A DNA stretch of 64,000 nucleotides from Acidobacteriaceae bacterium (GTDB lineage Bacteria > Acidobacteriota > Terriglobia > Terriglobales > Acidobacteriaceae): NCBI GenBank assembly GCA_049977105.1, contig JBMFGX010000014.1, positions 9,686-73,685 on the forward strand. The letters are read 5' to 3'. Made by a program: the position numbers and the translations under genes. The notes under the pieces were generated by a model that saw only the letters and a program-made list of their open reading frames with translations, was not told the origin of the DNA and made no database searches. This document shows, piece by piece, positions 28,479 through 53,555 of the stretch; the first letter of the stretch is position 1, and each line of letters begins with the position of its first letter.

Positions 28479-28522
28479 TGGGGGTCACTGGCAGCGCCAC
28501 GGATTGCCTCTAACCTTGCGAG

Positions 28523-28957
28523 GTGAACTCTGCACCTCAGATGCGCTCCCCATGCGCCTCGCAGCCCGTAACCCGGCAGCCTGTGGCCAAAAGGATCCTG
28601 ATCGCGGACCATCCGTTGAGTAGCCGCGAGCTTCTGCGGTCCATGCTGGAGGCGGATGGCTATGACGTCTGTGACGCGGAAGATGGGGAACAGGTTCTGC
28701 AAAGAGCCAGTACGCTTCTTCCCCAGCTCATCCTTCTGGATCTGCTGATTCCCAAGCTGGACGGCTATCAGACTGCAAGTGCTCTGCGCAAGATGCAGAT
28801 TTTCCAGACAACGCCTCTTATCGCGCTGGCAGCGGCCTGGTCAGATGCGGCGCCGGAGCGGATTTTCCAGGCAGGCTTCACCTGCTATCTTGTCAAGCCG
28901 GTTCTTCCAGCGCAACTGCGCAAGTGCCTCTCCGGCCTGCTGTCACCGGCCGGCTAA
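28523..28957 (+). CDS. single-domain response regulator (receiver only)
   Basis: KRILIAD..., phospho-acceptor context LILLDLLIPKLDGY, and the conserved K in YLVKP. The start is uncertain. Confidence 0.8.
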   Translation: MNSAPQMRSPCASQPVTRQPVAKRILIADHPLSSRELLRSMLEADGYDVCDAEDGEQVLQRASTLLPQLILLDLLIPKLDGYQTASALRKMQIFQTTPLIALAAAWSDAAPERIFQAGFTCYLVKPVLPAQLRKCLSGLLSPAG

Positions 28958-30324
28958 GCCCAGATCCCATACTTCTTCATCTTGTAGCGGAGCGCGTCAC
29001 GCCCGATTCCAAGCCGCCGCGCCGCCTCGGATTGATTCCCCTCTGACGCGCGCAGGGCCTCTTCAATCAGTCGCTGCTCCTGGTCCGCAAGGCAGACGGG
29101 AGTAGCCCCGTTGGCGTCCTCAGCCGGCGCGTGAGGGATCAGATGCTCAGGCAGATCCTGAACATCGATTTGGGGGCCATCGGCCAACATGCAGGCGCGG
29201 CCGATCACATGTTCCAGCTCCCGCACATTGCCGGGCCACGCGTAGTGTCCCAGAACAATCGATGCCCGTGGGGTCAGGCCGCCGATCTTCTTGCGAAACT
29301 CCTGGTTGAACCTCTTCACAAAATGCCGGGCAAGAAGCGGAATGTCCTCAGGCCGATCCCTGAGCGGAGGAACCGTCAGTTCCACCATGGAGAGACGATA
29401 ATACAGATCCTCACGAAACTTGCCCTCGGCAATGGCGGCGCGAAGATCGCGATGCGTGGCGGCGACCACGCGGACGTTGACCTTTCGAGCCGCCACCGAG
29501 CCGACAGCCAGAACCTCCTGGTTCTGCAGGGCGCGCAGCAGTTTCGCCTGCGTCTGCAGAGGCATGTCTCCAATCTCGTCCAGAAAGAGGGTCCCTTCGT
29601 TGGCCAGCTCAAAGAGTCCCGTTTTGTCCCGGTCGGCGCCCGTAAAGGAGCCACGCACATGACCAAAGAGTTCGCTCTCAAACAGGGTTTCCACTACAGC
29701 CGAGCAGTTCAGAACGACAAATTTGCCGCTCACCCGGCTGCGGCGATGCACCGCGCCGGCTACCAGATCCTTGCCAACCCCCGTGGCCCCGTGGATCAGC
29801 ATGGAGCGGTAGTGCGGCGCGACCCTTTCCATCATGGCGAATAGATCCCACATCCGCTCGCTCGCTGCCACCATCCCCTCGAACTCCAGCTCGGGCGTTG
29901 CTCCACCCGCAGCAGATTGGAAACGCTTCCTGCGTTTGGCCACATCGATCAGCCTCGCCACTCGCTCCCGCAGTACGGCGATCCTGACCGGCTTTTGCAG
30001 GTAGTCGGCAGCCCCTTGACGAATGGCGGCCACGGCTGTCTCCGTGGTGTAATGTGCCGTCATCAGAATCACATCGATCAAGGGATCAAACCAGATCACC
30101 TGCTCAAGGACTTCCAGCCCCGTCATCCCCGGCATCACCAGATCCGTCACCACCAGTCGCGGGTGATGCTTCCGCACCAGTTCCAGCCCTTCCCCAGGGC
30201 TCGATGCCGTGTAGACCGCAGCCTCGGCGTGGGCGAGAGCTGCCGAGATCAGTTCAAGGCTCCCAGGGTTATCGTCGATCACGACAATGGAGACAGCTTC
30301 AGGCATAGAACGTCGCAAGAGCAT
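28954..30324 (-). CDS. sigma-54-dependent Fis-family response regulator (NtrC-type)
   Basis: Receiver (VVIDDN...VVTDLVMPGMTG), AAA+ with Walker A GATGVGKD, ESELFGH and the GAFTGA-like GSFTGA loop, and a C-terminal Fis HTH (NQSEAARRLGIGRDALRYKMKK). Its stop overlaps the convergent receiver gene stop. Confidence 0.92.
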   Translation of the reverse strand: MLLRRSMPEAVSIVVIDDNPGSLELISAALAHAEAAVYTASSPGEGLELVRKHHPRLVVTDLVMPGMTGLEVLEQVIWFDPLIDVILMTAHYTTETAVAAIRQGAADYLQKPVRIAVLRERVARLIDVAKRRKRFQSAAGGATPELEFEGMVAASERMWDLFAMMERVAPHYRSMLIHGATGVGKDLVAGAVHRRSRVSGKFVVLNCSAVVETLFESELFGHVRGSFTGADRDKTGLFELANEGTLFLDEIGDMPLQTQAKLLRALQNQEVLAVGSVAARKVNVRVVAATHRDLRAAIAEGKFREDLYYRLSMVELTVPPLRDRPEDIPLLARHFVKRFNQEFRKKIGGLTPRASIVLGHYAWPGNVRELEHVIGRACMLADGPQIDVQDLPEHLIPHAPAEDANGATPVCLADQEQRLIEEALRASEGNQSEAARRLGIGRDALRYKMKKYGIWA

Positions 30325-30427: not shown

Positions 30428-30443
30428 AGTGATTGAAATCACA
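30428..30443. promoter_or_regulatory. CRP-type box AGTGATTGAAATCACA
   Basis: GTGAT-N4-ATCAC palindrome, 9/10 to TGTGA-N6-TCACA. It sits immediately upstream of the aaggag RBS of Crp/Fnr gene 1. Confidence 0.5.
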
Positions 30444-30454
30444 AGGAGCCATCT

Positions 30455-31192
30455 TTGGCATGGCAATTGCTATCTCTTCAGCAGATAGAACTTATGGAGA
30501 AACCAATGACCAGATGCCAATTTTGCTCGCACACCGGAAAGCACGCCTTCTGTAGTCTTGGCCAGCAGTCCCGCGCCTTCTTTGAATCCCATTCGGTCAG
30601 CATGGAATATCCCCGCGGCACGGTCCTGTTTCGTGAAGGCGACCGTACCGAGGCAGTGTATGTGCTCTGCTCCGGGAAGATAAAGATCTCTACCAGTTCC
30701 AAAGAAGGCCGCACCATGATCCTGCGCATCGCGGATGCAGGGGACGTTCTGGGCATGAGCGCGGCGCTGACCGACGGAGAACATGAAGTCACCGCGGAAT
30801 CGCTTGAGCCATGCGTCGCTCGCGTTCTGCCCGTCAAGCATCTTGCCACCATGTTGCAGGCCTATGGCGATGCCAGCATCGGCGCGGCGAAGTCTCTGGC
30901 GCAGGACTATCGCGCCGCGTTTGATGAAGCGCGGCTGGTCGCTCTGCCTGGATCTCCAGCCGCGCGACTGGCGCGATTGATCCTGGACTGGACCGACGAG
31001 GCCAGGAAGAACTCATCCGCAGTCATCACGATGCCGTTGACCCATGAAGAACTCGCCTCCATGACCGCAACCACCAGAGAGACCGTCACCCGCACCCTCA
31101 GCCGCTTTCGCAAGGACAAGATCATTGCGATTCGAGGCGTGTCGCTCACCGTGCTCCAGCCCACCATGCTCGAAGAGCTCTCGGCTTGCTAA
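30455..31192 (+). CDS. Crp/Fnr family transcriptional regulator 1 (Cys-rich, FNR-like sensor; CRP-like recognition helix)
   Basis: cNMP-binding-fold core (GTVLFREGD...VYVLCSGKIKI...GRTMILRI..GDVLG). HTH LTHEELASMTATTRETVTRTLSRF. N-terminal C-x2-C-x8-C (CQFCSHTGKHAFC) plus a Cys in LEPCVARV. Start is either the TTG at 30455 (5 nt after aaggag) or a downstream ATG at 30494/30506. Confidence 0.88.
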   Translation: MAWQLLSLQQIELMEKPMTRCQFCSHTGKHAFCSLGQQSRAFFESHSVSMEYPRGTVLFREGDRTEAVYVLCSGKIKISTSSKEGRTMILRIADAGDVLGMSAALTDGEHEVTAESLEPCVARVLPVKHLATMLQAYGDASIGAAKSLAQDYRAAFDEARLVALPGSPAARLARLILDWTDEARKNSSAVITMPLTHEELASMTATTRETVTRTLSRFRKDKIIAIRGVSLTVLQPTMLEELSAC

Positions 31193-33305: not shown

Positions 33306-34496
33306 ATGACAGAAGTTTCGAGCCGTCTCTTTGTATCCGGTAATGGAGCAGTCCAGGTGGTCCCTCCGCCTGCCCATCCCTCCGCTCGCTCTACACACGG
33401 TTCTGGTCTGCGCGATTTTTCCCAGGACCCCATGCTGGTCTACTGGGAGATGACGCAGGCCTGCGCTCTAGCCTGCCGCCACTGCCGCGCAGAAGCCGTC
33501 TCCACGCCCCACCCTCAGGAGTTGACGAATACCGAAAGCCGAGAGCTGCTGCGCCAGATTGCGTCCTTCAACAAGCCCTTGCCGCAACTGATCATGACCG
33601 GCGGCGATCCCTTGCGCCGCGCCGATCTGTATGACCTGATTGACTACGCGCATGATTTGGGCATCACCGTCTCCATTACGCCCAGCGCCACCGGAGAGCT
33701 GACCTTTGAGGCTCTGGCAAAACTGAAGGCGCACGGTATTGAGAGCCTCGGCCTTAGCCTGGACGGCTCCAGCGCGCTTCGCCATGAGGCCGTGCGCGGC
33801 GTGGAGGGCTGTTTCGATTGGACCATCCGCGCCGCTGAGGGCGCAGCAAAACTGGGAATGCCGATTCAGGTGAATACCCTGGTCTCCGAGGAGACCGCCG
33901 ATGACCTGCCGGCCATCTATGAACTCCTCAAGTCCATCCAGGTGATGCGCTGGAGCCTCTTCTTCCTGATCGCCGTGGGCCGCGGCAAAACCTTGCAGCC
34001 TGTCTCTCCGGAGCGCGGCGAAGAGCTGATGAATTGGATCTATGATCTGGCGCGCGTCGGCCCGTTCGCCATCAAAACAACGGAAGCTCCCTCCTATCGC
34101 CGCGTTGCCTTGAACCGCATGCGCCAGGAGGGAATGCATGCCCGCGAGATTGAGCAGACGCCAGTCTATCGCGGATTCGAGGTCCGCGATGGACACGGCA
34201 TCATGTTCGTCTCCAACCAGGGCGATATCTATCCCGCGGGCTTTTTACCGCTGGCCGTCGGCAACGTGCGCACCGACCATCTCGTGGACATCTATCGCAA
34301 CTCCCCCATGTTCCGCGCACTGCACAATCCCAGCGAGTTCAAAGGCAAGTGCGGAGAATGCGAGTATCGCGCCCTCTGCGGCGGCTCGCGCGCACGGGCG
34401 TTTGCGTATACAGGAGATGCCCTGGCCAGCGATCCCTTCTGCCCCTACGAGCCCAAGGCCCACGCTGTATCCCCATCTCCCGCTATGGCAAGCTGA
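33306..34496 (+). CDS. radical SAM enzyme with C-terminal SPASM/twitch-type Cys cluster (NirJ/AhbD-like architecture)
   Basis: CxxxCxxC in WEMTQACALACRHCRAEA, and a GGDPL motif. The C-terminus KGKCGECEYRALCGGSRARAF...DPFCPY is typical of SPASM domains. Confidence 0.85.
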   Translation: MTEVSSRLFVSGNGAVQVVPPPAHPSARSTHGSGLRDFSQDPMLVYWEMTQACALACRHCRAEAVSTPHPQELTNTESRELLRQIASFNKPLPQLIMTGGDPLRRADLYDLIDYAHDLGITVSITPSATGELTFEALAKLKAHGIESLGLSLDGSSALRHEAVRGVEGCFDWTIRAAEGAAKLGMPIQVNTLVSEETADDLPAIYELLKSIQVMRWSLFFLIAVGRGKTLQPVSPERGEELMNWIYDLARVGPFAIKTTEAPSYRRVALNRMRQEGMHAREIEQTPVYRGFEVRDGHGIMFVSNQGDIYPAGFLPLAVGNVRTDHLVDIYRNSPMFRALHNPSEFKGKCGECEYRALCGGSRARAFAYTGDALASDPFCPYEPKAHAVSPSPAMAS

Positions 34497-34716: not shown

Positions 34717-34732
34717 CGTGATAACGATCACA
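34717..34732. promoter_or_regulatory. CRP-type box CGTGATAACGATCACA
   Basis: GTGAT-N4-ATCAC palindrome in noncoding DNA upstream of the cytochrome genes. It shares the 17-nt core GTGATAACNATCACAGC with the box at 34884. Confidence 0.5.
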
Positions 34733-34883
34733 GCCGAACTTCATCAGCCCGCCCTATCGTGATTCTGCAGAAACAAACGGTTCAGAGGTTGTCGCAGGCG
34801 AGTCGAGCTAGGATAACGGCGATTGTTGATTCCAAACGTTCGAACGTCTTCCATCTGGCCGATCCATCTCAAAAAAATACGCA

Positions 34884-34899
34884 GGTGATAACAATCACA
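34884..34899. promoter_or_regulatory. CRP-type box GGTGATAACAATCACA
   Basis: GTGAT-N4-ATCAC palindrome 167 bp after its near-twin. It sits 119 bp upstream of the small signal-peptide ORF and 430 bp upstream of the first cytochrome c gene. Confidence 0.5.
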
Positions 34900-35017
34900 G
34901 CGGCGTTCTGCGAGGCATCGTATCGTTATCCTGCCTAAGGAAAGTGTTGAGAGGCCGCCGCAAATGTTCGGAAATACGATACAACCACTCGTAAGGTTGC
35001 CGCTTGGAGATCTGAAA

Positions 35018-35197
35018 ATGAGACGTATGTTCGTTTGTTTGGCATTGACCGCGTCTCTGACCGCAATGTGGGGGATCGGCCCGGTGTCGGCCGCCGCTCA
35101 GAATGGAAAGCAAGCCAGCGCCGTGGAGACAACGGGACCGGTAGGGAGTCCGGCGTCTCGTGTACTTCTTCCACCGTCGTCGGACCAACCGGGCTAA
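35018..35197 (+). CDS. candidate small secreted protein (59 aa)
   Basis: ggaga RBS 8 nt before the ATG. Sec-type signal MRRMFVCLALTASLTAMWGIGPVSAAAQ is followed by a ~31-aa Pro/Ser/Gly-rich tail. Several overlapping ORFs exist in this GC-rich stretch, so the call is weak. Confidence 0.3.
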   Translation: MRRMFVCLALTASLTAMWGIGPVSAAAQNGKQASAVETTGPVGSPASRVLLPPSSDQPG

Positions 35198-35328
35198 CGG
35201 AGCCACCTTCGGGCCTCACCGCGCCCAGAAACTTCCATGCCAACCTGCTGGTGCTCTCCATGCATTACGAGTTCTAACTGGTTAGCACGGTGCTTCAAAT
35301 CAATCAGATGGATCGACGAGGAGATAAC

Positions 35329-35652
35329 ATGGCATCGAAAGTCAAGTCAGGTATCTTGTTGGTTGCTTTCCTGGCAACCTGTGCGTCAACACCCTTCGCT
35401 CAGAACACAGCAGCGGCAATCTATCAATCGAAATGTCAAATGTGTCACGGCGCGGATGGTACTGGGAACACCCCCGCCGGAAAGGCAATGAAGGTCGGCT
35501 CCTTCAAATCACCGACTCTAATCAAAGCTTCAGATGCGGAGTTGTTCGCAGAGACGAAGAATGGAAAGGGACGGATGCCGGCTTACGCGAGCAGGCTGTC
35601 TGACGCTCAGATCCATGCTGTGGTCGCCTACATCCGCACGCTCCAAAAATAA
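35329..35652 (+). CDS. monohaem class I cytochrome c (periplasmic)
   Basis: ggag RBS, signal peptide, single CQMCH haem motif and a distal Met (GRMPAY). Start placed at ATG 35329. Confidence 0.88.
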   Translation: MASKVKSGILLVAFLATCASTPFAQNTAAAIYQSKCQMCHGADGTGNTPAGKAMKVGSFKSPTLIKASDAELFAETKNGKGRMPAYASRLSDAQIHAVVAYIRTLQK

Positions 35653-36138
35653 AAAGGACGGTGACGCAGGCTGAGAATGGCAGCCTGCGCCATCTCTCGA
35701 TCTGTAGCTTCATCGCGCCTGGGGTTGCAGTGTGGTCGGGTTGCGGAATCTATCACCCCAACCACCCCGTCTGCTCTAACTCCAGCTCCTTCAGGAAGCC
35801 AGTGACTGAAGTTGGCTCCCTTCAACCAAAGGTTGTCAAAGGGAGCTCAGTCGTCGTAACCAGGTAAGGCAGCGGTCAGTCTGCGCTGCTACGTCAGCAG
35901 ACTGACCGGATGCCCATAGGAAACCTGTAGCCGTTCGATCACGCTCTCCAGGAGCGAAGATCGTGAAGACGTAGTTGCCCTTTTCTCTTCCGCTAGCGTC
36001 ATCTTTCTGCAAGGATCACGCTAGCAAGTCCCTCATGAGCTGTGTGATTGTATCCGTTACTATTTAGAAAGCAGAATGGGTGCGGAAGCGTGGCGCCCAT
36101 CAAGCGTTCCAGAAAAAATAACTAACTAAGGAGCAATC

Positions 36139-36447
36139 ATGAAGCGTACTCTGACTCTCGCAGCCACTTCTCTCTTCGCCCTGTCCGTTCTTGCACCTGC
36201 CTTTGCTCAAAACTCAGGCGCCGCAATCTATAAATCGAAGTGCCAGATGTGCCATGAAGCGGATGGTACCGGCATGGCCGCCATGCACGTTCCTTCCTTC
36301 AAATCCCCACAACTGAAGAGTGAATCCACCGCATCGCTCATCAACGATGTGATGAAGGGCAAGGCGATGATGCCCGCATTCGGAAGCAAGCTGAGCGCCA
36401 GTCAGGTCAAGGAGGTTGTGGCGTATATCCGCACTCTCCAAAAATAG
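36139..36447 (+). CDS. monohaem class I cytochrome c (paralogue)
   Basis: aaggag RBS, signal peptide, CQMCH and MMPAF. Colinear with the 35329 gene (AAIY.SKCQMCH..DGTG ... VVAYIRTLQK). Confidence 0.9.
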   Translation: MKRTLTLAATSLFALSVLAPAFAQNSGAAIYKSKCQMCHEADGTGMAAMHVPSFKSPQLKSESTASLINDVMKGKAMMPAFGSKLSASQVKEVVAYIRTLQK

Positions 36448-36471
36448 TTGCTAACTGAAAAGAGGTTAGTC

Positions 36472-37890
36472 ATGTCTCTGTCGGGTAGTGCACGGAGCGG
36501 GGGGGCGATCCCCCCCCTCCCCAGCAGAAAATCCCTCGCGAATCTGTTTTTCTCGAAGCGGCCGTTCTCGAAGAGGCTAATCTTAGAGACGCAAGAGCCT
36601 GTCAAGACACTCCCAACGTCTACGCCAGCCAACCGTTCCTCCCTTATCGGACCCGGTCGGGCTCAAATCCCGGCACAATCGTCCAGTCCGCCCCAGCGAG
36701 CCTTCCTTCCTTCCTCGCTCCTCTCTCGGCTCTCCCGATATCGACGCACCCTCGCCGCCCCCTTGCTCTCCGCAGGCTGTGTCCTGTTCCTGCTTGTTCT
36801 GCCGGCCACTCCGGCGCGTGCGCAGACCGACTGCCTGGCCTGTCACGGCGATGTGACCATGACGGACGCCGCCGGCCATAACGTCGGTGTGGATGCCACA
36901 AAGTTTCATGCTGGAATCCACGGCTCTCTGCACTGCACAGACTGCCACAGCGACATCAAAGGCTACCCGCATCCGGCCCAGCCCAGTAAAGTGGACTGCG
37001 GGACCTGCCACACGGCTGAAGCCGCTGATCTGGTCGGCAGCGTGCATCAACATGCCGGCGCGCAGCCCTGCCTCAGTTGCCACGGCAATCCCCACTACAT
37101 TCTGCCCAAAAGCAGTCCCCAATCTTCGGTCTATCCGCTCAACGTCCCGGCCACGTGTGGCAAGTGCCACGGCAACGCCCAGTTCGCCAAACAGCACCAT
37201 CTGACCAACGTCTATCCGGAGTATATCGACTCCATCCATGGGTTCGCTGTCAGCAAAGAGGGCCTGTTGGTGGCAGCAAATTGCGCCAGTTGTCACGGAT
37301 CGCATCACATCCTTAGCCCAACGGACCCACAGAGCCCCACCTACCGCGCCAACATCCCACAAACCTGCGGGAAATGTCACGCCGGCATTCTCACAAGATA
37401 CATGGCGGGCATCCACGGGCAGCAGTTGAAAGCTGGGAACCCGAATGCTCCCGTCTGCACAGACTGCCACACAGCCCATGGCATCGCGGCACCCAACAGC
37501 GCGCTCTCCACAGATGCCTGCGGCCGTTGCCACCAGGCCCAACTCACCACCTATCGCGATACCTTCCACTCCAAGGTCAGCCATCTTGGGGCCTACGTGG
37601 AGGTCGCACGCTGCTCGGACTGCCACGGCGAGCACAATATCCTTCCTCCTTCCGATCCACTCTCTACCGTCAACCCCAGGAATCTGATCAAGACCTGTGG
37701 CAAGTGCCATCAGGGCGCAAATGCCGGCTTCGTTCAATATCAACCGCACGCCAATGACAGGAGTTGGCGCCAGAGCCCGGTGCTCTTCTCCATTCACCTG
37801 TTCATGGTGATATTGCTAAGCAGCGTGCTCACCTTCTTCTTAATTCACAGCCTGTTGTGGCTGATACGCTCCTTGATCGACAGGGCGTAA
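36472..37890 (+). CDS. undecahaem c-type cytochrome with C-terminal membrane anchor
   Basis: 11 CxxCH motifs (CLACH, CTDCH, CGTCH, CLSCH, CGKCH, CASCH, CGKCH, CTDCH, CGRCH, CSDCH, CGKCH). A hydrophobic segment LAAPLLSAGCVLFLLVLPATPARAQ comes after ~95 N-terminal residues. C-terminal TM VLFSIHLFMVILLSSVLTFFLIHSLLWLI. Start is ambiguous: TTG 36448 or ATG 36472 (preceded by aagagg). Confidence 0.85.
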   Translation: MSLSGSARSGGAIPPLPSRKSLANLFFSKRPFSKRLILETQEPVKTLPTSTPANRSSLIGPGRAQIPAQSSSPPQRAFLPSSLLSRLSRYRRTLAAPLLSAGCVLFLLVLPATPARAQTDCLACHGDVTMTDAAGHNVGVDATKFHAGIHGSLHCTDCHSDIKGYPHPAQPSKVDCGTCHTAEAADLVGSVHQHAGAQPCLSCHGNPHYILPKSSPQSSVYPLNVPATCGKCHGNAQFAKQHHLTNVYPEYIDSIHGFAVSKEGLLVAANCASCHGSHHILSPTDPQSPTYRANIPQTCGKCHAGILTRYMAGIHGQQLKAGNPNAPVCTDCHTAHGIAAPNSALSTDACGRCHQAQLTTYRDTFHSKVSHLGAYVEVARCSDCHGEHNILPPSDPLSTVNPRNLIKTCGKCHQGANAGFVQYQPHANDRSWRQSPVLFSIHLFMVILLSSVLTFFLIHSLLWLIRSLIDRA

Positions 37891-37916
37891 GACTCGTCAG
37901 CGAAAGGAGCCAGATT

Positions 37917-38906
37917 ATGCCAGACCAAGCCATGCCAAAACCTGTAACGCCAGCGCAGTCGCAGCATCAGGTAACCGGGGACGGTCCCTCCGGTCGCCCC
38001 GGCGCGGGCCAAACCCAACCTGCCGCCCAGCCGACCCCAGCCCAGCAAACTACGGCGCAGCAAGCCACTGCCGGCCCAGCCAAACAGCCGGAAGAGCGGT
38101 ACTTCCAGCGCTTTACGGTCAAGCAGCGGTGGTCCCACGCCATCATGCTCACCACGTTTCTGGGGCTGGCCGCAACCGGTCTCAGCATCCTCTTCAGCAG
38201 CAATGCCTGGGCCCAGCGATTCGCGGCTCTGGTGGGCGGCTTTGACGCCATCCTCTTCCTGCACAAACTCTGTGCCGTCACCCTCACCGCAGTATTTCTT
38301 TATCACGTGTACGACCTTATGGTGCGGATCTTCATCAAAAAAGAGAAGGGTATCCTTTGGGGGCCAACCTCCATGGTGCCCAATCTCAAGGATCTCAAAC
38401 ATATGATCGGTAACTTCCGCTGGTTCCTGGGATTGGGACCCAAGCCAACCGCCGAGCGCTATGCCTACTGGGAGAAGTTTGACTACTGGGCCGTGTTCTG
38501 GGGGATGGTCATCATCGGCTCTTCAGGCTACGTCATGTGGTTCGGTCCCTTCTTCGGCAGGTTCCTGCCCGGCTGGGCGTTGAACGCCGTCCAGATCGTA
38601 CATGGTGAAGAGGCACTGCTCGCCATTACCTTTATCTTCTCCATCCACTTCTTCAACTCTCACGGGCGGCCAGACTGCTTCCCGATGGATACGACGATAT
38701 TTACCGGCGTTGCCTCCGAGGAGGAGTTCAAGCAACGGCATCTGGACGAGTACCAGCGTCTGGCAGCCGAGGGCAAGCTGGAGGAAAAGCTTACGGTCAA
38801 ACCACAACCGGGGTTTGTCACCTTTGCGAAGGTGATGGGTTTCACCGCTGTCTTCATCGGTCTCGTGTTATTCGTCTTAACAGTGCGTGCCTACTTCCGG
38901 ATTTAG
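37917..38906 (+). CDS. membrane b-type cytochrome-like subunit (FdnI/HydC/PhsC-like)
   Basis: aaaggag RBS, with the start 27 nt after the undecahaem stop. About five TM helices with conserved His (WSHAIML, LFLHKL, FLYHVY, IVHGEEALL..FSIHFFNSH). Gln/Ala/Pro-rich N-terminus. Start moved to 37917. Confidence 0.7.
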   Translation: MPDQAMPKPVTPAQSQHQVTGDGPSGRPGAGQTQPAAQPTPAQQTTAQQATAGPAKQPEERYFQRFTVKQRWSHAIMLTTFLGLAATGLSILFSSNAWAQRFAALVGGFDAILFLHKLCAVTLTAVFLYHVYDLMVRIFIKKEKGILWGPTSMVPNLKDLKHMIGNFRWFLGLGPKPTAERYAYWEKFDYWAVFWGMVIIGSSGYVMWFGPFFGRFLPGWALNAVQIVHGEEALLAITFIFSIHFFNSHGRPDCFPMDTTIFTGVASEEEFKQRHLDEYQRLAAEGKLEEKLTVKPQPGFVTFAKVMGFTAVFIGLVLFVLTVRAYFRI

Positions 38907-38983
38907 GCATGAGCCCCATTGCTTGGCTTCGTCCCACTCCTTGAGTTCGCTGAGGCGCAAAATTCAATTACGAGGAGTTCCTA

Positions 38984-40420
38984 GTGCCCATCATCGATCA
39001 CATCGTGAAACATTGGCTTAGACCTTTCTTTTTTCTGGGAAGGAACAAGCTCAGTCTAGTCGGCGGGGCGATTGCTTCCGCATCCGCCTTCGTTCTGATC
39101 GGTTTCTGGATGGTGAGCATCTTTGGGCACGGCGGCTCATCCAACCCCTACCTCGGCCTCATCCTCTTCTTCGTTTTGCCGACGTTCTTCATCCTGGGCC
39201 TCATTGTGATCCCCATCGGGATCATGCGGCAGCGGCGCAAGTTGCTCGCCAAGGGCGAGCTTCCCTCGCTCTATCCAGACGTCGACTTCAACGAGCCGAT
39301 GTTTCGTCACGCCCTCAACTTTGTCGTTGTCGCCACCGTCATCAACTTTACAATCGTCGGCGTTGCCAGCTATCGCGGCGTCGCCTACATGGATTCGCCC
39401 AACTTCTGCGGCACGGCTTGCCATGTTGCCATGCAGCCCCAGTGGGACGCCTACCAGGCTGGTCCCCACTCTCATGTGCAATGCGTGGAGTGCCACGTGG
39501 GCAGTGGGTTTGACAACTATGTTCACGCCAAGATGGAAGGAACCAAGCAGCTCGTCGAGGTCACCTTTGACACCTACCCGCGCCCCATCCTGGCGCCGCT
39601 CGATGTGCTTCGCCCCGCCCGCGCAACCTGCGAAAAATGTCACAACCCCAGACGCTTCCTCGGTGACCGCCTGCTGGTCCTGACGGAATTCGCCAGCGAT
39701 GCGCAGAACTCCATGACCAAGACCGTTCTGGTGCTTCATCTCGGCGGCGTGGACTCTCTGGACCAGTTCAGTGGAATCCATGGTCACCATCTCAATCACA
39801 TTGAGTATGTTGCCACCGACGACATGGACCAGAACATCGTCTCCGTTTCTACCCCCGGACCCAACGGCCAGACCATCGAGTATCGATCGGACTGGAAGGG
39901 CCCCGTCAAAGGCGTCCGTCGCGTGATGGATTGCATGGACTGCCACAACATGGCGGCGCACAGTTATTCCACTCCAGGGGAGGCGATCGACGCAGTGATG
40001 GCCGATGGTACTCCCTCACCCTCTCTCCCCTATGTGCGTAAGGAGGGCATGGAACTTATCCAGGGTAAGTACGCTTCGCAGGCGGCGGCCGCCGTCGCCA
40101 TCAGGAACGGTCTTGAGGAGTTCTATCGCTCCCAGTACCCAGCCATCTTTAGCAGCCGGCACGATCAGATCGAGGCAGCAGCCCAGGAACTCATCGTCAT
40201 CTATGACCGGAACGTCTTCCCGGACATGCACGTAACCTGGGGAACCTACCCGAACAACATCGGGCACATTGACTTCCCCGGCTGCTTCCGCTGCCATGAC
40301 GGCAATCACACCACCAAGGACGGCAGCAAGACTATCACCAACGACTGTTCTGCCTGCCACAACCTTCTCGACGTCAGCGATCCCAATCCCAAGATCCTGA
40401 GCGAGGTCGGCTTCCAATAG
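38984..40420 (+). CDS. 3-TM NapC/NirT-like multihaem quinol dehydrogenase candidate (ImcH-like architecture)
   Basis: Three N-terminal TM helices, then a NapC/NirT-like block SPNFCGTACHVAM...HSHVQCVECHVG...K..GTKQL...CEKCHNPRRF. Further motifs CMDCH, CFRCH and CSACH. Total is five CxxCH plus one CX3CH (CGTACH). Confidence 0.8.
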   Translation: MPIIDHIVKHWLRPFFFLGRNKLSLVGGAIASASAFVLIGFWMVSIFGHGGSSNPYLGLILFFVLPTFFILGLIVIPIGIMRQRRKLLAKGELPSLYPDVDFNEPMFRHALNFVVVATVINFTIVGVASYRGVAYMDSPNFCGTACHVAMQPQWDAYQAGPHSHVQCVECHVGSGFDNYVHAKMEGTKQLVEVTFDTYPRPILAPLDVLRPARATCEKCHNPRRFLGDRLLVLTEFASDAQNSMTKTVLVLHLGGVDSLDQFSGIHGHHLNHIEYVATDDMDQNIVSVSTPGPNGQTIEYRSDWKGPVKGVRRVMDCMDCHNMAAHSYSTPGEAIDAVMADGTPSPSLPYVRKEGMELIQGKYASQAAAAVAIRNGLEEFYRSQYPAIFSSRHDQIEAAAQELIVIYDRNVFPDMHVTWGTYPNNIGHIDFPGCFRCHDGNHTTKDGSKTITNDCSACHNLLDVSDPNPKILSEVGFQ

Positions 40421-40444
40421 CATCCAACAACATCCACAAGCAAT

Positions 40445-40475
40445 GCGGCATCCTGAACCTCGGGATGCCGCTTTT
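40445..40475 (+). terminator. rho-independent terminator of the + strand cytochrome operon
   Basis: 9-bp stem gcggcatcc/ggatgccgc followed by TTTT, 25 nt after the stop at 40420. Confidence 0.75.
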
Positions 40476-41173
40476 GCGATTGCATCCTTCAAACCCTCGT
40501 CCTGGGGCCTTTTCCTTGTATGCCGTCCCGGTAGTATCGGTAGCGTCAAGAGTTTTGCGCGGTCGTGTCCGTGTGGTGTCCTGGCAGCGTCCAGAGCTCT
40601 AGGCACCTTTGACCTCCCGTCTTACTCAGGGTTATTGTGTCTGGGTCGTTTGCCTGCTTGCCCCCCATGCGGCCTGGCAGCAAGGCAATCACGCATTAGC
40701 CGCCACTTCAGCCAGCCAATTTATCTGTAATAGCGATGACGCGCACTGGCAGCGACGAGGGCGCAGCGGCAAGGGCTCCAGAAAGCCGACTGATCGTCGG
40801 GAAAGGCGCTCACTACCTCAGTTCTTGTCGCCGAACCTCCCGTATCAGCCGCTCCCGGTGATCGTTGGCCCTCCGGCAGCGACAGTGCTCCGCGGACACG
40901 GAGCGCAACTCAGCGTCCCATGGCCACCATGCTCCACGATCTCATCCTGCTCGCCGCCAGGCGAGCCTCTTGCCCGCGCGCTGCCGACAGGCAGGCGCGG
41001 CACGCGTCGTATTGATTCCGATGCGGGCCAAAGACGCGATCTACGCCCGAAGCGCTCCGCGATAGGAAAGGAAGGGTTCCAGAAGGGAAGTACTGAGACG
41101 GGGAGCCTGTTCCGCTCCTTGCCATGGGCGGCAAGCGGATCAACGCTTGCTTGAGCGATTACTTGGTCTGGCG

Positions 41174-41208
41174 GATTGTGGAGCTGGCCGCAGGGCAGCT
41201 CCACAATC
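41174..41208. repeat. 13-bp perfect inverted repeat (gattgtggagctg / cagctccacaatc)
   Basis: Read directly from the sequence, with a 9-nt spacer. It lies in the unassigned ~1-kb gap between the convergent cytochrome genes. No flanking T-tract on either strand. Confidence 0.7.
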
Positions 41209-41431
41209 GAACGCTTCAGTGCCCAGAATCTGCCCGGTACCTATGTCAAACTCTGCCGTCGCCACCGTTGGTGAGCTCGGTGCAGCTCAAGTTTCCGCTT
41301 CACCGCTCTCCGACTTTTCTGCCTCAATGCGCTCTGACTCAGGCCACGCATCTGCAACCGGACTCCGAGCCAGAGATCGCCGTCGCTGTGAATCAGAACC
41401 CTGGACTATAGGCGCCTTCGTCCATGCTCCT

Positions 41432-44400
41432 CTACCATGTGCGCCCAATGTACACATCGAACGTCCGAAGCACGCCATTCAGGTTCGGGTTCCAGTGGTC
41501 CCTATAGCTTCCGTAGTACAGGACGAACCCTCCCTCGAATTTGTAGGGCAGATGATAGTAAGCCTTGCCCTGACCAAGCCACTGTGGGACCTGCACTGCT
41601 GAAACCTGGGTCGAACCAAGCTGGATATTGTCCAGTGCCTGCTGGAACATGCTGGGATCAAACAAACCTTGCTGAATCAGCGATGCATTGCCCATGCCGG
41701 CGGGATCATTGGGATTCAGATTGGGCCGGAAGCTGCTGCTTGACGCATTGTGAGTAAGCCTTAAATCAAGGCCCATCCGCTGCTTGAGCGTATAGGTGGA
41801 ATCGCCCCAATAGACCTGGCTGAGCTGCTTGTAGGGTACGTTCGGTTCATCGAGAATATAGTTGACCGAGCTATCGTTCTGGAACGCCATGTAACTGGTC
41901 AGGTTGTCCTGTTGGTAAGAGTATCCAGCGGCAACATCCCACGCCCGCGCCGCCTGGAAGGAGACGTTGGCCGCCTCGGTATAGAAGCGGTCTCGCCGCT
42001 GAAAGACCGGGGGAAGTCCGGAGATATCCTGTCCAAACCCCTGATACGTCGGATTAGGAGTATCTGGAAGCGGATCGGCCGGGAAACTGTTCTGCACCAG
42101 GATACTGGTGTTGTTCACGAAGGTCAGCCGCGGCGTGGGGGTGAACCAGAGATTGGCAAAGGTTCGATTCTGGTCCTCAGGAACAATCAGAAATCCTGGT
42201 TGTTGCGTCTTTGTCCATACGTCGCCGGCCACCACATTCAGCAGATGATTGCGATAACCCAGATCCAAAGACCCTCGATTGCTGGTGGAAGACGGAATGA
42301 CATACTGCAGATCCGTGTTATCCATGGAGTAAATCTGCGGCCACAGGAACGAATTGGACCGCGTAATTCCACTTCGCCGGTAGGACGCATCGGCAAACAA
42401 TCCGGCCGGCAGTTCGGCCTCAATCTTCAGCCCCTCCCAATGCCTGTGGAATGAAACGTTCCCGTACAAGCTGTAGTATGGCGTAAAGTCGTTGATCAGG
42501 TTCTGCTGATGGTAATCGGCGATCAGATGGATCCGCTTCATGGCCAGCCAGTTTAGCGTCTCGTCGGAATCGAACCAGTTTTGCGGATTCTTCGTGTAGG
42601 TGTTCACCAGGCGGGTATAACTCACGTGCCCGTCAAAGCTGAACACGTCCGATGGTGTCACAGTGAGGTTTACCGTGTCTGCGACAGTCCGGTCAGGAGA
42701 CGGGATATCGAGATAGTAGTTCCCTGCAGGGAAATCGGTCGGGGCAGGCCCGGATGGGGGGGGATTTATCGGCGAGAAGCCCTCGTTCTCCGGTGTAGAC
42801 GGACCTTCATACGTGGCTGTGGGGAAGATCAGACGATCATTGAAGCTGCTGATCTCGTGTTGGTAGGTAAGTTGTAGCAGGTTCTGCAAATGGTAAGTGA
42901 AGCCTCCACCGAAGTTCCGAGTGGTGTAGTTGACCGGTTGGAATTTGGATACCTGATGGCACAAGTCGCCGCAGGTGGTATTCACTCCGTCTACGTACAC
43001 CGCCGGCGTCGCATTTTCGTCCAGGTAGGTGAGTTGCGTATTCCCCACCCTGGCCTGCATATTTCCGTTCGCAAACAGAAGAACAGGCAACTTCGGTAAC
43101 TGGACCTGCACAGAGCCGTTGCCCAATCTTCTGGTAACCCCAAAGGTGGCGTTAGGCGGAATCAGATCGATAACGGCGCCTGGAAGGCCAAAATCCGCCG
43201 GGGAGAGTTGCGCAAGGTACGATTTGTAATGATCCTGCTCTTGCACCAGACTGCGCAGGTCCAGCCCGGCCTTCATCCATTTGGCAATGGTCAGTTGCGT
43301 CTGCATCGAGTAGTCGACCCCGGTCAGCACCCTGCTCCGTGATACCAGCGTCAGATGGTTCTTGGGCGAGACATAGGATGTCATGCTGACGCTTCCAGCC
43401 GACTGTTGCAAACTGTCATACTCTCCTACACGGCTCAGAAATCCTGTACCGTCAAGAAACCGATAGGAGCCGGAAGTGATGGAGGATGTTGCTAACGGGA
43501 TGCCACCTCCCGCTGTCACCTCAGCCGCGCCGGCACCCGGATTCCCAGCGCTCGGATTCCCAACGCCGGGATTCCCGGCGCCCAGCCCGCGCTGCAGGGT
43601 GCGCGCATGGAGATTGGTCACCAATCCCATCAGGCCGCCTGCGGTAGCAATCGTGGCTGCTGCCGCGTCTGGAGTCGCATTGGAAAAGGCCTCACGTCCC
43701 GCGGGGCCAGGCCCTGAGGCGTCATAGGGCAAGCCGAGCGGTCCCTTGTCAATGAATCTGCTCCCACCGCTCAGCGTGGCTACATCCGTGCCATGAATCG
43801 AGTCGTGACAATTTGTGCAACGATCATCCAACGGCAGATTGGCGCCATTATGGTGACCCGCGTGGCACTGCAAACACAGTGCCGGTTCGCTCAGCGTCAA
43901 CAGATTTGTATTCGGTGAGCCATGCGGCAAATGGCAGTTCAGGCATGATTCCGTCACCGAAGGATGCTGATAGGCAAACGGCCCGCGATACTGCGCGTGG
44001 CAGGTCAAGCAGAGTTCGTTCACGTTGGCTGTCTTCAGGTTATTTCCCGCGTTTCCGCCATGCGCATCGTGGCAGTCCATGCAACTCATCTTGCCCTCGC
44101 CCAGGGGATGGTGGTACGGCATGCTGAGCTGCGCCCTCTCCGCCTCATGGCATCTCAGGCAGGCTGCGTTCGTCACGGAGCGCGCTTCCACCAAGGCGTT
44201 GGTCTCTGGCGAGATCGAGGAAACTTGCTGAGCTCCACGCGTGGTGGTATCGAACCGCACCATATGGCTCTGGGCCGTACTCGCACCGCCGGGATGGATC
44301 TCATGGCAATCGATGCAGCGAACCCCGCTTGCAGCATGAGCCCCGCTCTCCCAGTGTCTGGTGCTTTTGTCCTGGGCATGGCAGGTCAGACAGACACCGT

Positions 44401-44722
44401 TCGCGTTCGCCGAGGTACTCTTCTCGAATCGAAAGATCTTGGAAGTGTCTCCTCCGCCGGCTACGTGAAGACTTCCGTTACCATGGCAACTTTCACACTT
44501 CACTCCTTGCTGAGCGTGATAGGCATGCTGGAAATTCCTGGCGATATCCGCATGGCACGCGGCGCAGGTTTCAGATCCGACGGGTTTTGCCCCTGGAATC
44601 CTTAGAAACTCTGCAAAGGACGCGATACTCTGGGTGGATTGCTTGGCCGCGGACGGAGAGATGCAAACAAACATTGCAAGTCCCGTTACCACCAGAATCG
44701 ATAGGAAAGATGAGCGCCGCAT
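41432..44722 (-). CDS. fusion protein: MtrA/DmsE-type decahaem cytochrome c + Gly/Asn/Pro linker + predicted outer-membrane beta-barrel (MtrB/PioB-sized)
   Basis: One uninterrupted 1096-codon ORF. GGAG RBS, then a signal peptide. Ten CxxCH within aa ~53-306, colinear with S. oneidensis MtrA as I recall it (CLTCHAQYRGPFAYQHPSVTESCLNCHLPHGSPNTNLL..PALCLQCHA...CTNCHDSIHG versus [47 protein letters not shown]...CLNCHSQVHG). aa ~416-1096 have no long hydrophobic helices, are rich in Y/N/T/S/G/Q with alternating patterns, and end ...FDVYIGRTW. Confidence 0.85.
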   Translation of the reverse strand: MRRSSFLSILVVTGLAMFVCISPSAAKQSTQSIASFAEFLRIPGAKPVGSETCAACHADIARNFQHAYHAQQGVKCESCHGNGSLHVAGGGDTSKIFRFEKSTSANANGVCLTCHAQDKSTRHWESGAHAASGVRCIDCHEIHPGGASTAQSHMVRFDTTTRGAQQVSSISPETNALVEARSVTNAACLRCHEAERAQLSMPYHHPLGEGKMSCMDCHDAHGGNAGNNLKTANVNELCLTCHAQYRGPFAYQHPSVTESCLNCHLPHGSPNTNLLTLSEPALCLQCHAGHHNGANLPLDDRCTNCHDSIHGTDVATLSGGSRFIDKGPLGLPYDASGPGPAGREAFSNATPDAAAATIATAGGLMGLVTNLHARTLQRGLGAGNPGVGNPSAGNPGAGAAEVTAGGGIPLATSSITSGSYRFLDGTGFLSRVGEYDSLQQSAGSVSMTSYVSPKNHLTLVSRSRVLTGVDYSMQTQLTIAKWMKAGLDLRSLVQEQDHYKSYLAQLSPADFGLPGAVIDLIPPNATFGVTRRLGNGSVQVQLPKLPVLLFANGNMQARVGNTQLTYLDENATPAVYVDGVNTTCGDLCHQVSKFQPVNYTTRNFGGGFTYHLQNLLQLTYQHEISSFNDRLIFPTATYEGPSTPENEGFSPINPPPSGPAPTDFPAGNYYLDIPSPDRTVADTVNLTVTPSDVFSFDGHVSYTRLVNTYTKNPQNWFDSDETLNWLAMKRIHLIADYHQQNLINDFTPYYSLYGNVSFHRHWEGLKIEAELPAGLFADASYRRSGITRSNSFLWPQIYSMDNTDLQYVIPSSTSNRGSLDLGYRNHLLNVVAGDVWTKTQQPGFLIVPEDQNRTFANLWFTPTPRLTFVNNTSILVQNSFPADPLPDTPNPTYQGFGQDISGLPPVFQRRDRFYTEAANVSFQAARAWDVAAGYSYQQDNLTSYMAFQNDSSVNYILDEPNVPYKQLSQVYWGDSTYTLKQRMGLDLRLTHNASSSSFRPNLNPNDPAGMGNASLIQQGLFDPSMFQQALDNIQLGSTQVSAVQVPQWLGQGKAYYHLPYKFEGGFVLYYGSYRDHWNPNLNGVLRTFDVYIGRTW
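41435..43477 (-). other. predicted beta-barrel (porin-like) domain of the fusion ORF
   Basis: About 680 aa with beta-rich composition and a C-terminal aromatic residue. The size is comparable to MtrB/PioB porins. The assignment rests on composition and context only. Confidence 0.55.
43539..43583 (-). repeat. 15-bp tandem repeat x3 encoding the (G-x-G-N-P) linker
   Basis: The + strand core ggattccc recurs at 43539, 43554 and 43569. It encodes GAGNPGVGNPSAGNPGAG between the cytochrome and barrel domains. Confidence 0.8.
43778..44575 (-). other. decahaem (MtrA/DmsE-like) domain of the fusion ORF
   Basis: aa ~50-315 carry all ten canonical CxxCH motifs. Confidence 0.85.
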
Positions 44723-44842
44723 AATCGTTCTCCTGCAAAAGCCATTTGGAAACGCGAATCGCCGGAACGCTTTGTGTTTTCCACGAGCGAATCCCTATTT
44801 GCTGCGTTACGCAAGAGTATGTTCTCGCCCAAGCAGGAAGTC

Positions 44843-44858
44843 AGTGATGACCGTCACC
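44843..44858. promoter_or_regulatory. CRP-type box AGTGATGACCGTCACC
   Basis: GTGA-N6-TCAC core, 121-136 bp upstream of the fusion-gene start codon at 44722. Confidence 0.4.
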
Positions 44859-52542: not shown

Positions 52543-53555
52543 TCAGAACGCAGCCTTGGTTTGCCGAAGGCTATACGAACTGAGCGTCTTGATGTAATTG
52601 CCGCGGTCATAGGGCGAGGTGTCCGGCACGGACCGGCGGCTCAGGCAGCCGCGCGTCTCCGCCAGCGTGGCGTACTCGCGCTCTTCCAGCCAGTCCCGCA
52701 GATCCGCCAGCACCCGACCAATGTGCTGGATGCCGTAAAGATGCAGCGCTGAGGTCATCTCCGCCACGCTCCCGCCGGCCATCACAGACTTCAGCACATC
52801 CTCCGCGGTATGAACGCCACCGGTGATAGCGATGTCGCCCTCCAGATGACCGAAGAGGATGGCCGCCCAGTGCAGCCGTGGCAACAGCTCAGCCGGCGTG
52901 GAAAAGTGCAGCGTCGGCCGCACCTCCAGCGTCTCTATGTCAAAATCCGGCTGATAGAAGCGGTTGAACAGCACCACCGCCCGCGCGCCCACTTCTTCCA
53001 GACGCCCGCACACATGGGGCAGGCTGGTGTAAGACTGCGAGAGCTTCACGGCGACGGGGATCGTCACCTCCTTCACCACGCTGCCCACCAGCTCCACCAA
53101 CTGATCCTCAACCTGGGTTGAGCTCTGCCTGCCATCGGTCACCAGGGCAAAGGTGTTGAGTTCAATGGCGTGCGCTCCGGCCGCCTCCATCTCCCGGGCA
53201 AAGCGCACCCAGCCGCCGGGCGTGGCGCCGTTCAGGCTGGCGATAATGGGAATCCTCACCGCCTCCCGCGCCCGTCGTAGATGGTCCAGGTAATCTTCGT
53301 GCGTCATGCGGTAGTCGCGCATCTCCGGCAGGTACCCGAGCGACTCGGCATAGGACTCCGTGCCGCGCGATAGATCCTCATCCAGCTCGTGCGACTCCAG
53401 CGTCAACTGCTCCTCAAACAGTGACGTGAGCACAACAGCCGCCGCGCCCGCGTCTTCCATTCGACGAATGTTGTCAATCGACTCAGAGAGCGGCGTGGAC
53501 GACACCACCACCGGACTGCTCAGCTTCATGCCCAGATACTGCATGGAAATCTCTG

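Follow-up and report, generated by a model that had tools for sequence, protein, structure and literature searches.

The outer-membrane electron conduits MtrAB(C), MtoAB and PioAB combine a decahaem cytochrome of the MtrA/DmsE family with a large barrel of about 26 strands, wire and sheath being separate polypeptides, and in the mto cluster the genes mtoA, mtoB, mtoD and cymA form a co-directional operon whose inner-membrane partner, CymA, is a tetrahaem protein. Cyc2 of Fe(II) oxidizers unites a cytochrome with only one haem and a barrel of about 16 to 17 strands in a single chain and has no separate surface cytochrome. At the inner membrane, Geobacter possesses ImcH (GSU3259), encoded by a monocistronic gene and characterized by three N-terminal transmembrane (TM) helices and seven haem motifs, and CbcL (GSU0274), in which a c domain with nine haems precedes six TM helices in one polypeptide; CbcBA has a split organization, and a C-terminal helix of its c subunit supplies a histidine. 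Of a further Geobacter pair, OmcK (GSU2203) and GSU2204, we know of no characterization beyond its up-regulation with iron oxides. The oxides in question are hematite and magnetite (PMC4070692). Here we report on a window of 64,000 nucleotides from a Terriglobia acidobacterium (Acidobacteriaceae bacterium, contig JBMFGX010000014.1), the term window denoting this whole stretch throughout, in which six open reading frames (ORFs) within 10 kb make up a cytochrome locus. All components can be placed in, or close to, known families (ImcH, CbcL, MtrA/DmsE and OmcK/GSU2204), and we assign a probability of about 55% to the reading that the inner-membrane and periplasmic cytochromes of the + strand (unit 1) and a convergent fusion gene (unit 2) are two units of one low-oxygen, FNR-type regulon that jointly span the envelope for extracellular electron transfer. 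Terriglobia dominate acidic soils and peat, and their respiration without oxygen is poorly understood. The locus comprises the following features:

35329 to 35652, + strand: c1, a monohaem class I cytochrome c with a signal peptide and the motif CQMCH (PF13442, E = 2.8e-15)
36139 to 36447, + strand: c2, a monohaem class I cytochrome c and paralogue of c1 (PF13442, E = 7.4e-14)
36472 to 37890, + strand: mh11, an 11-haem cytochrome c with 11 CxxCH motifs (matches to PF14522 and PF14537)
37917 to 38906, + strand: b, a dihaem-b-type membrane subunit of the HydC/FdnI class (PF01292, 39.2 bits against a cut-off of 30.1)
38984 to 40420, + strand: imcH, an ImcH-family inner-membrane cytochrome of 478 aa with three TM helices, one Cx3CH and five CxxCH
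40421 to 41431, no strand: spacer of 1,011 nt between the convergent imcH and fusion genes, with no recognisable gene or RNA
41432 to 44722, − strand: single-polypeptide outer-membrane conduit of 1096 aa, a decahaem-barrel fusion

All six ORFs are present at the coordinates given in a preliminary description of this DNA, whose inventory of 28 CxxCH and two Cx3CH motifs proved exact on recount. One CxxCH each is found in c1 and c2, 11 in the 11-haem protein and none in the b-type protein, while the ImcH-like protein has five plus CGTACH at residue 142 and the fusion ten plus CGDLCH at residue 584. The whole window, read in all six frames, holds only 34 CxxCH motifs, 28 of them within the six genes; the clustering is therefore beyond chance and the window contains no further multihaem gene. 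By the same six-frame count no MtrC/OmcA-type surface decahaem lipoprotein is encoded in the 64 kb window, as the preliminary description had stated, and matches to PF22113 were weak and located inside the MtrA-like domain of the fusion.

The product of the − strand gene has the following domain arrangement:

residues 1 to about 26: Sec signal peptide
residues about 45 to 325: MtrA/DmsE/OmcK-type decahaem domain
residues about 330 to 410: linker rich in Gly, Ala and Pro
residues about 412 to 1096: predicted barrel of about 26 strands, with CGxxCH at 584 to 589 in a long loop predicted to face outward

Its N-terminal domain is an MtrA/DmsE-type decahaem cytochrome, with ten CxxCH motifs spanning residues 53 to 306, a match to MtrA (PDB 6R2Q_A) at E = 5.7e-46 and a score of 196.9 bits for the DmsE family TIGR03508, above the cut-off of 192.2. 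The best-scoring family is NF041028, the GSU2203 family, at 226.9 bits against a cut-off of 325. The C-terminal domain is predicted to form a large beta-barrel. Its only family match is NF041027, at 35.8 bits against a cut-off of 350, and the split and the CxxCH-type relatives score 56 to 86 bits, the cut-offs of NF041027 and NF041028 being far higher. NF041027, named "GSU2204 family CXXCH-containing (seleno)protein", is treated as an MtrB/PioB-type outer-membrane barrel in a 2026 review (PMC13188914). The C-terminal 690 or so residues of the fusion gave no Pfam match and thus none to PF11854 (MtrB_PioB), and a split relative, L062 (L-numbers designate loci or contigs of relatives retrieved for comparison), reached 20.5 bits for PF11854, below the cut-off of 23. 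An AlphaFold2 model, with a mean pLDDT (predicted local distance difference test score) of 45.6 over the whole fusion, places 25 well-scored strands (pLDDT of about 80), and one more that is probably the first, within residues 412 to 1093. Turns on one side of the modelled barrel do not exceed 6 residues, and the long loops all lie on the other side. Foldseek retrieved large outer-membrane barrels only; MtrB (6r2q_B) came second, among TonB-dependent receptors and LptD, and had the best TM-score (TMt 0.44). The assignment of an Mto/Pio-like outer-membrane module, already made in the preliminary description, is supported by the MtrA match of the first domain and by the predicted large barrel of the second.

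All 32 of 32 aligned homologues have the motif CGxxCH found at residues 584 to 589 of the fusion. An invariant NYTTRN comes after it, and a CxxCH of the split relatives aligns with it; nearly all representatives of the barrel family have a haem motif at this place, at about residue 200. Counting strands from a periplasmic C-terminus in the low-confidence model puts it in a long loop on the side predicted to face outward, and the putative haem site, if occupied, would then lie at the cell surface. In comparison with MtrAB(C), MtoAB and PioAB, to which it is akin in its decahaem domain and, by the low-confidence model, in its large barrel, the protein differs in that wire and sheath are one polypeptide, that the barrel has no significant match to PF11854 and a haem motif of its own, and that MtrC is missing. 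OmcK and GSU2204 share the haem motif at the equivalent barrel position, and the split acidobacterial relatives reproduce their two-gene arrangement; here, in contrast, the two are fused, the barrel motif is Cx3CH rather than CxxCH, and the family scores remain far below their cut-offs. The likeness to Cyc2, with cytochrome and outer-membrane barrel in one chain and no separate surface cytochrome, is one of concept only, as the fusion has ten haem motifs plus one and a predicted 26 or so strands; no sequence relationship between the two was detected. We also considered that the fusion might be a lipoprotein, on account of a conserved cysteine in the signal peptide, and rejected this, as several homologues lack the cysteine and its context is no lipobox.

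At least 331 clusters of full-length homologues were found at 90% identity, and there were 352 matches in species-representative genomes. The 80 fusion loci that were retrieved come nearly all from metagenome-assembled genomes of Acidobacteriota/Terriglobia, for example Granulicella, Terracidiphilus, Sulfotelmatobacter and Acidiferrum, with one labelled Dormiibacterota. About 10 of the 80 contain the unfused form, a decahaem of about 320 aa and, 40 nt further on, a barrel that measures about 700 aa and has a single CxxCH; the pairs are 35 to 39% identical to the fusion, and their barrels are homologous to its barrel at 100% probability in hhalign. The barrel family is a compact one: 1.84 billion proteins yielded 102 representatives at 50% identity, and three or more of the divergent ones are of fusion length.

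On the + strand, the gaps between c2, mh11, b and imcH are 24, 26 and 77 nt, and these four genes look like one operon. Sequences resembling ribosome-binding sites precede the likely starts of c1 (probably ATG 35329, with GAGGAG ahead), mh11 (probably ATG 36472) and b (ATG 37917, with AAGGAG ahead). With this last start the b gene follows 26 nt past the mh11 stop codon; the adjacency of the two genes had been recognized correctly, whereas the earlier figure of 27 nt was off by one. All five ORFs of this strand are intact and their haem and histidine motifs are conserved.

The 478-aa product of the last gene is, as judged from topology and motif spacing, a member of the published ImcH family. 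Its TM helices were placed by hydropathy at residues 29 to 47, 58 to 76 and 107 to 125, and its haem motifs lie at 142, 167, 216, 317, 434 and 455, the Cx3CH directly past the third helix. The ImcH homologue ACP_0476 of Acidobacterium capsulatum, a protein of 479 aa, has its motifs at 142, 166, 214, 317, 434 and 454 (Table S3 of Zhong & Shi 2018, PMC6295460), and its helices at 21 to 43, 58 to 80 and 113 to 135. Motif spacing is 25/49/101/117/21, compared with 24/49/103-108/117/20 in the family, whose defining features are given in PMC6295460 and by Levar et al. 2014 (PMC4251993). In 25 homologues of the protein, C142 of the motif CGTACH is invariant, and C146 and H147 are conserved in at least 90%. 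The NapC/NirT region was recovered as a match to PF03264 at residues 113 to 197 (37.9 bits against a cut-off of 24.1), and the NrfH structure 2J7A matches residues 124 to 222. The topology originally proposed, a NapC/NirT-like protein with three TM helices, was therefore borne out, as was its ImcH-like character. From Geobacter ImcH, with which it has in common the three N-terminal helices and the Cx3CH right behind the third, it differs in the number of haem motifs, six instead of seven, the last one being missing; its positions are nearly identical to those of ACP_0476 in the six-motif subclass. The gene also differs in its setting, as it is the last one of a c-mh-b-imcH operon rather than monocistronic. 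In the Acidobacteriaceae the family is very large and exceeds 5,000 clusters at 90% identity.

By alignment, the two genes upstream of imcH together classify as a bc-cytochrome of the CbcL type that is split. The 11-haem protein carries a signal or anchor segment in its N-terminal part and, at its C-terminal end, a TM helix with two histidines, one of them noted as conserved, and among solved structures it matches generic c7-type multihaem proteins only. The b protein has 12 histidines and about five hydrophobic segments, or, when the threshold is lowered, six with two that adjoin, in agreement with the C-terminal TM helix and the roughly five-helix b protein of the preliminary description, and yielded no significant match to solved structures. 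In four relatives, the two are a single protein of 675 to 736 aa with 11 or 13 haems that aligns colinearly across the junction:

L034, 20153 to 22180: fused mh-b gene
L076, 2387 to 4588: fused mh-b gene
L128, 11466 to 13676: fused mh-b gene, located 3' of imcH rather than 5'
L159, 11450 to 13639: fused mh-b gene, located 3' of imcH rather than 5'

The split falls after TM1, such that the 11-haem protein corresponds to the c domain with TM1 and the b protein to TM2 through TM6. Spacing from TM2 to TM6 is 43/74/30/81, compared with 48/78/34/78 derived from published positions for G. sulfurreducens CbcL, and histidines are conserved in TM1, TM2, TM3 and TM5, the latter with a pair, across the two proteins and the fused homologues, in the published CbcL pattern. 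The locus thus has what defines a bc-cytochrome, a multihaem c domain followed by six HydC/FdnI-type helices with histidines for the b haems, and what it does not have is the single polypeptide of CbcL, MtrH and MtoC, the two ORFs being 26 nt apart. The split CbcL-like pair of the preliminary description is supported by this colinearity and pattern. Further differences from CbcL, which is known here by its published TM positions and histidine pattern, are the 11 haem motifs instead of nine and a Pro-, Gln- and Ala-rich N-terminal extension of the b subunit (37917 to 38080), which measures about 55 residues and is also absent from the fused homologues. The split organization itself resembles CbcBA. 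Note that the 11-haem protein, too, has a notable N-terminus (36472 to 36750), where a Ser-, Pro- and Arg-rich stretch of about 90 residues precedes the signal or anchor segment.

The region between the promoter of the operon and c1, which the preliminary description had passed over, contains the remnants of two further genes:

35018 to 35163 (right limit approximate), + strand: relic 5' end of an operon-type decahaem gene, with the signal peptide MRRMFVCLALTASLTAMWG...
35164 to 35277, + strand: relic 3' end of a haem-free barrel gene, its last 38 or so codons, ending in LSMHYEF and a stop codon

In blastx against a small database, the relic decahaem start matches the N-terminal 53 aa or so of the L104 decahaem with 38% identity over 53 aa (E = 1.6e-4). 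Within the relic barrel end, a stretch of 27 aa shares 92.6% identity with the C-terminus of the L086 barrel; at least 13 further barrels match similarly, and the DNA of this relic aligns in frame through the common stop codon, after which the first monohaem gene follows. Codons for a decahaem signal peptide are thus joined out of frame to the last 38 or so codons of a barrel, and an exact palindrome lies 133 nt ahead of the relic ATG at 35018, at a distance as in intact operons. At the corresponding place L081 and L086 have an intact decahaem-barrel pair of 3.3 kb, and in L081 a radical SAM gene, a Crp gene, decahaem, barrel and the c-mh-b-imcH genes lie together. The simplest reading of the scar is that an L081-like ancestor lost the decahaem and almost all of the barrel through an internal deletion of about 3.3 kb, with the promoter left in place. 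The native outer-membrane partner of the operon was accordingly an unfused decahaem with a haem-free barrel, the latter of about 800 to 900 aa in relatives, and this pair is deleted here.

The wider occurrence of such operons was assessed with a metagenome scan seeded with an ImcH alignment, which added 80 loci. A recurrent operon emerged in which an MtrA-like decahaem of about 310 to 390 aa is followed by a haem-free protein of 745 to 943 aa ending in YEF, YAF or YSF, then by one to three monohaem cytochromes c, optionally mh and b, by imcH, and optionally by a fused mh-b gene with 13 haems. C-terminal YEF, YAF or YSF is a usual signature of outer-membrane proteins. Upstream sequence of 6 kb or more is available for 33 imcH loci; in 18 of these a same-strand decahaem lies upstream, in 17 cases followed by a barrel ORF ending in YxF; where at least 6 kb are available on both sides, a decahaem is present in 14 of 20. 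The order within unit 1 recurs as well, as c-c-c-mh-b-imcH with an mh of 456 aa and a b of 299 aa in L081, and as c-mh-b-imcH in L082. ImcH-type genes of Acidobacteriota are thus often co-operonic with an MtrAB-like pair, whereas no mtrAB or mtoAB was found adjacent to imcH in the genomes available to PMC6295460. The barrels of these operons and that of the fusion were compared to see whether they are one family; hhalign gave a probability of only 12.7%, and we consider them distinct or very remote; split barrels against YxF-type barrels gave 75%.

The two units have a cis-element in common, and the genes that may read it are encoded nearby. In order of position, the sites and context genes of the window are:

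30429 to 30442, no strand: exact palindrome GTGATTGAAATCAC, 13 nt upstream of a Crp/Fnr ORF
30455 to 31192, + strand: Crp/Fnr-family regulator (PF00027, PF13545 and PF00325)
33306 to 34496, + strand: radical SAM/SPASM protein, TIGR04053 (469 bits against a cut-off of 395), a relative of NirJ and of AhbD, an oxygen-independent haem synthase
34718 to 34731, no strand: exact palindrome GTGATAACGATCAC in the promoter region of the operon
34885 to 34898, no strand: exact palindrome GTGATAACAATCAC, 133 nt upstream of the relic decahaem start
44844 to 44857, no strand: near-consensus palindrome GTGACGGTCATCAC, as written on the strand of the gene, with 1 mismatch, 122 nt upstream of the fusion start
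53556 to 57209, − strand: PFOR, within an anaerobic/hypoxic-type gene cluster at 52543 to 62008
57912 to 58973: second Crp/Fnr regulator with the same Cys cluster
58970: exact palindrome upstream of the tandem-Usp gene
59384 to 60319: tandem-Usp protein
60806 to 62008: acetate kinase
62005: exact palindrome

The exact palindrome GTGATNNNNATCAC occurs at five sites in the window, against 0.05 expected by chance, and the consensus of the shared element is GTGAY-N4-ATCAC. The limits at 34717 and 44858 that had been drawn for the locus coincide with the palindromes at 34718 to 34731 and 44844 to 44857. In relatives, 28 of 75 fusion loci have a palindrome with at most one mismatch within 350 nt upstream, where about two were expected (0.028 per 380 nt), and 12 of 17 decahaem-first operons have one 16 to 202 nt upstream of the decahaem start; the Usp genes beside the imcH operon of L082 have it as well. 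The canonical FNR box, TTGAT-N4-ATCAA, had been tried and was set aside, as it is weakly enriched (26 sites against 15.8 expected at 2 mismatches) and the real motif is GTGAY-N4-ATCAC. The regulator at 30455 combines an FNR-like N-terminal C-x2-C-x8-C with a CRP-like recognition helix, RETVTR, that suits the GTGA half-site; its best NCBIfam matches, FixK, FtrB and Fnr, are all below their cut-offs. In about a dozen loci a Crp/Fnr gene is located on the opposite strand upstream of the decahaem, and these proteins and both paralogues of the window share the C-x2-C-x7/8-C cluster and the RETVTR helix. The palindrome would therefore suit FNR-like regulators encoded nearby, and these proteins are the candidates for binding it; the site at 30429 is probably autoregulatory. 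Homologues of the radical SAM protein lie upstream of the cytochrome operon in L081 and L094, and the protein may act in the synthesis or modification of haem without a need for oxygen. With PFOR, acetate kinase, Usp and the AhbD-like radical SAM protein, the genes of the window form a context of hypoxia or anaerobiosis.

From its parts, the most likely function of the locus is an extracellular electron transfer induced at low oxygen, with the direction unproven. Limitation of O2 would let an FNR-like regulator switch on both the operon and the fusion gene. Quinol would be oxidized by ImcH and the CbcL-type complex of unit 1, which would lead from the inner membrane to the periplasm, and the monohaem cytochromes c1 and c2 would carry electrons through the periplasm to the fused conduit. 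This conduit, unit 2, would have its decahaem wire tethered by a flexible linker to the barrel of the same chain and would move electrons through the outer membrane and on to Fe(III), humic quinones or similar acceptors. An 11th haem bound by the Cx3CH of the barrel could serve as the surface contact, making MtrC or OmcA unnecessary, and would explain why these are missing. Adjacency, the linkage in L076 and the common palindrome make the pairing of operon and fusion plausible, not proven. The original description of the locus as self-contained holds only in part, since the operon has lost its native conduit and the scar at 35018 to 35277 is what is left of it. That electron direction cannot be read from sequence, as stated at the outset, is upheld. 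We favour outward flow, toward Fe(III) or humic reduction, because ImcH homologues have been reported from Fe(III) reducers only, A. capsulatum included (PMC6295460), and because the genomic context is anaerobic. A more far-reaching version of this account can be advanced only tentatively and is at present doubtful: the fusion would be a one-gene wire through the outer membrane, with ten haems passing through its own barrel and an eleventh attached covalently to an outward loop of that barrel, in need of no partner porin or surface cytochrome, and, together with the ImcH and CbcL types under an FNR-like regulon, it would serve respiration on Fe(III) or humics and functionally replace the deleted conduit.

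Several observations weigh against the account of two cooperating units and have to be set beside its competitors. The model of the fusion is poor, with loops below a pLDDT of 50 and the haem domain not modelled, so that only strand counts and loop lengths were used and the loop orientation follows from the rule of long loops and short turns rather than from coordinates, and two members of the barrel family, P0253 and P0269, are without the barrel haem motif. Moreover, a co-conservation of the five + strand genes with the fusion, for which the preliminary description had proposed a comparison, did not emerge: no family is conserved around the fusion in the 80 loci, the commonest occurring in at most 9 of them; inner-membrane genes adjoin it only in L001, L034 and L076; and relatives with fusions of 60 to 72% identity have none of the five genes within 10 kb. 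The adjacency seen here could therefore be accidental. Unit 1, now without the conduit that belonged to it, may have become partly disabled or may work with another partner elsewhere in the genome. These points lead to the alternative that the units are mere neighbours and not one pathway, the fusion acting autonomously with other carriers and the operon using a conduit elsewhere or decaying. It can further invoke the convergent orientation with a 1-kb spacer in between, the different barrel family of the native partner, and an IS66 element, judged by eye, at the corresponding junction of L002, whose fusion is 95% identical. We regard it as unlikely, although to be taken seriously, since against it stand the five intact ORFs with conserved haem and histidine motifs, the palindrome at both units, the fused mh-b gene 7 kb from the fusion gene in L034, and L076, in which c, imcH, fused mh-b and a fusion-type decahaem (62% identical) all lie on one strand. 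In L001, from the same species and with a fusion of 96% identity, the contig ends in imcH.

Two other alternatives retain a single pathway and change what it does. In an uptake pathway of the Mto/Pio type, electrons from extracellular Fe(II) or reduced humics would enter through the fused conduit and pass via monohaem c to a terminal oxidase, with the ImcH and CbcL types acting as quinone reductases. Class I cytochromes c are typical of high-potential, oxidase-linked chains, MtoD of Fe(II) oxidizers being an example. A monohaem c immediately 5' of imcH in 50 of 74 related loci, and the order decahaem, barrel, monohaem c and NapC/NirT-related protein in relatives, which mirrors mtoA-mtoB-mtoD-cymA, keep this direction open, the carriers suiting it equally well; FNR-type control would also suit microaerobic respiration, and CbcL/MtoC homologues are found in iron oxidizers and iron reducers alike (PMC6295460). 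The likeness to the mto cluster, with monohaem class I cytochromes and a NapC/NirT-related protein encoded close by, has its bounds, as the inner-membrane partner is of the ImcH type and not a tetrahaem CymA, the conduit of the window is fused and convergent, and the decahaem-barrel-c-imcH order of the relatives is analogous rather than identical. Given the restriction of reported ImcH homologues to Fe(III) reducers, the fermentative and anaerobic context of PFOR, acetate kinase and Usp, the lack of a terminal oxidase, RuBisCO or other autotrophy genes near the clusters in the loci inspected, and a host lineage known as heterotrophic, uptake appears distinctly improbable. Far less probable still is a role of the inner-membrane cytochromes in supplying a periplasmic reductase whose substrate is soluble, for example nitrite, TMAO/DMSO or a sulfur compound, instead of extracellular electron transfer. 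Weak similarity to NrfH, NapC and TorC (TIGR03153, E = 2.7e-16; 2J7A, 2.6e-4) and source annotations as "nitrate/TMAO reductase-like tetraheme cytochrome c subunit" point that way, but none of the scores comes near its family cut-off (NrfH, 59.9 bits with 134 required; NapC/NirT, 18 with 311; TorC, 20 with 455), so that the membrane cytochromes do not classify with the Nrf, Nap or Tor systems. Furthermore, neither the ORF survey of the window nor the related operons inspected showed a catalytic subunit of the kind of NrfA, NapA or TorA; the partners in those operons are decahaems, barrels and monohaem cytochromes.

Should the far-reaching reading of the fusion as a one-gene wire within such a regulon be correct, the Terriglobia that abound in soil and peat would gain a previously unrecognised respiration on Fe(III) or humic matter once oxygen runs out. 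Extracellular respiration in Acidobacteriota becomes directly testable through the imcH-MtrAB-like operons, the widespread family of fused conduits and the one FNR-type motif ahead of both. A complete outer-membrane conduit from one gene would be the simplest known multihaem wire across a membrane and attractive for heterologous engineering, and the deletion scar can be viewed as a natural experiment on the interchangeability of two conduit types. In the searchable literature we found no description of a decahaem-barrel fusion in Acidobacteriota or of any single-chain decahaem-barrel with a conserved barrel haem motif, nor of the frequent mtrAB-like-c-imcH operon in Terriglobia, the FNR-type palindrome common to both units, or the scar. 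Other clusters of Acidobacteriota, named EET1 and EET2, are described in a 2026 preprint on peat, which does not mention ImcH, inner-membrane modules or fusions.

Some minor features of the region deserve mention. A scan of the window for promoters and terminators gave counts no higher than in shuffled sequence, the sole standout being a 12-bp hairpin directly past c1, at 35662 to 35692, and Rfam at gathering thresholds returned nothing meaningful for the whole window. The spacer at 40421 to 41431 contains no credible ORF and no Pfam match, spacer ORFs in general having none, and gave nothing meaningful in Rfam at E <= 1; its nucleotide identity is 84% in L001 and L002. About 97 nt just 5' of c2 (36042 to 36138) are 77% identical to the region ahead of the third monohaem gene of L081 and may, by this conservation, represent an internal promoter or 5' untranslated region. 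The IS66-like transposase ORFs of L002, at 4752 to 6137, start about 80 nt from the position that corresponds to the imcH end in the window. This may point to a junction that rearranges easily, or to a chimeric L002 contig. Upstream of the operon, at 26841 to 30324, a PAS histidine kinase, a stand-alone receiver protein and a sigma-54-dependent response regulator are encoded. Sigma-54 response regulators of 37 to 40% identity are found within 10 kb of the fusion in 7 of the 80 loci, including L018, L039, L045, L049, L066 and L068, which recalls BccR, whose gene adjoins cbcBA in Geobacter.

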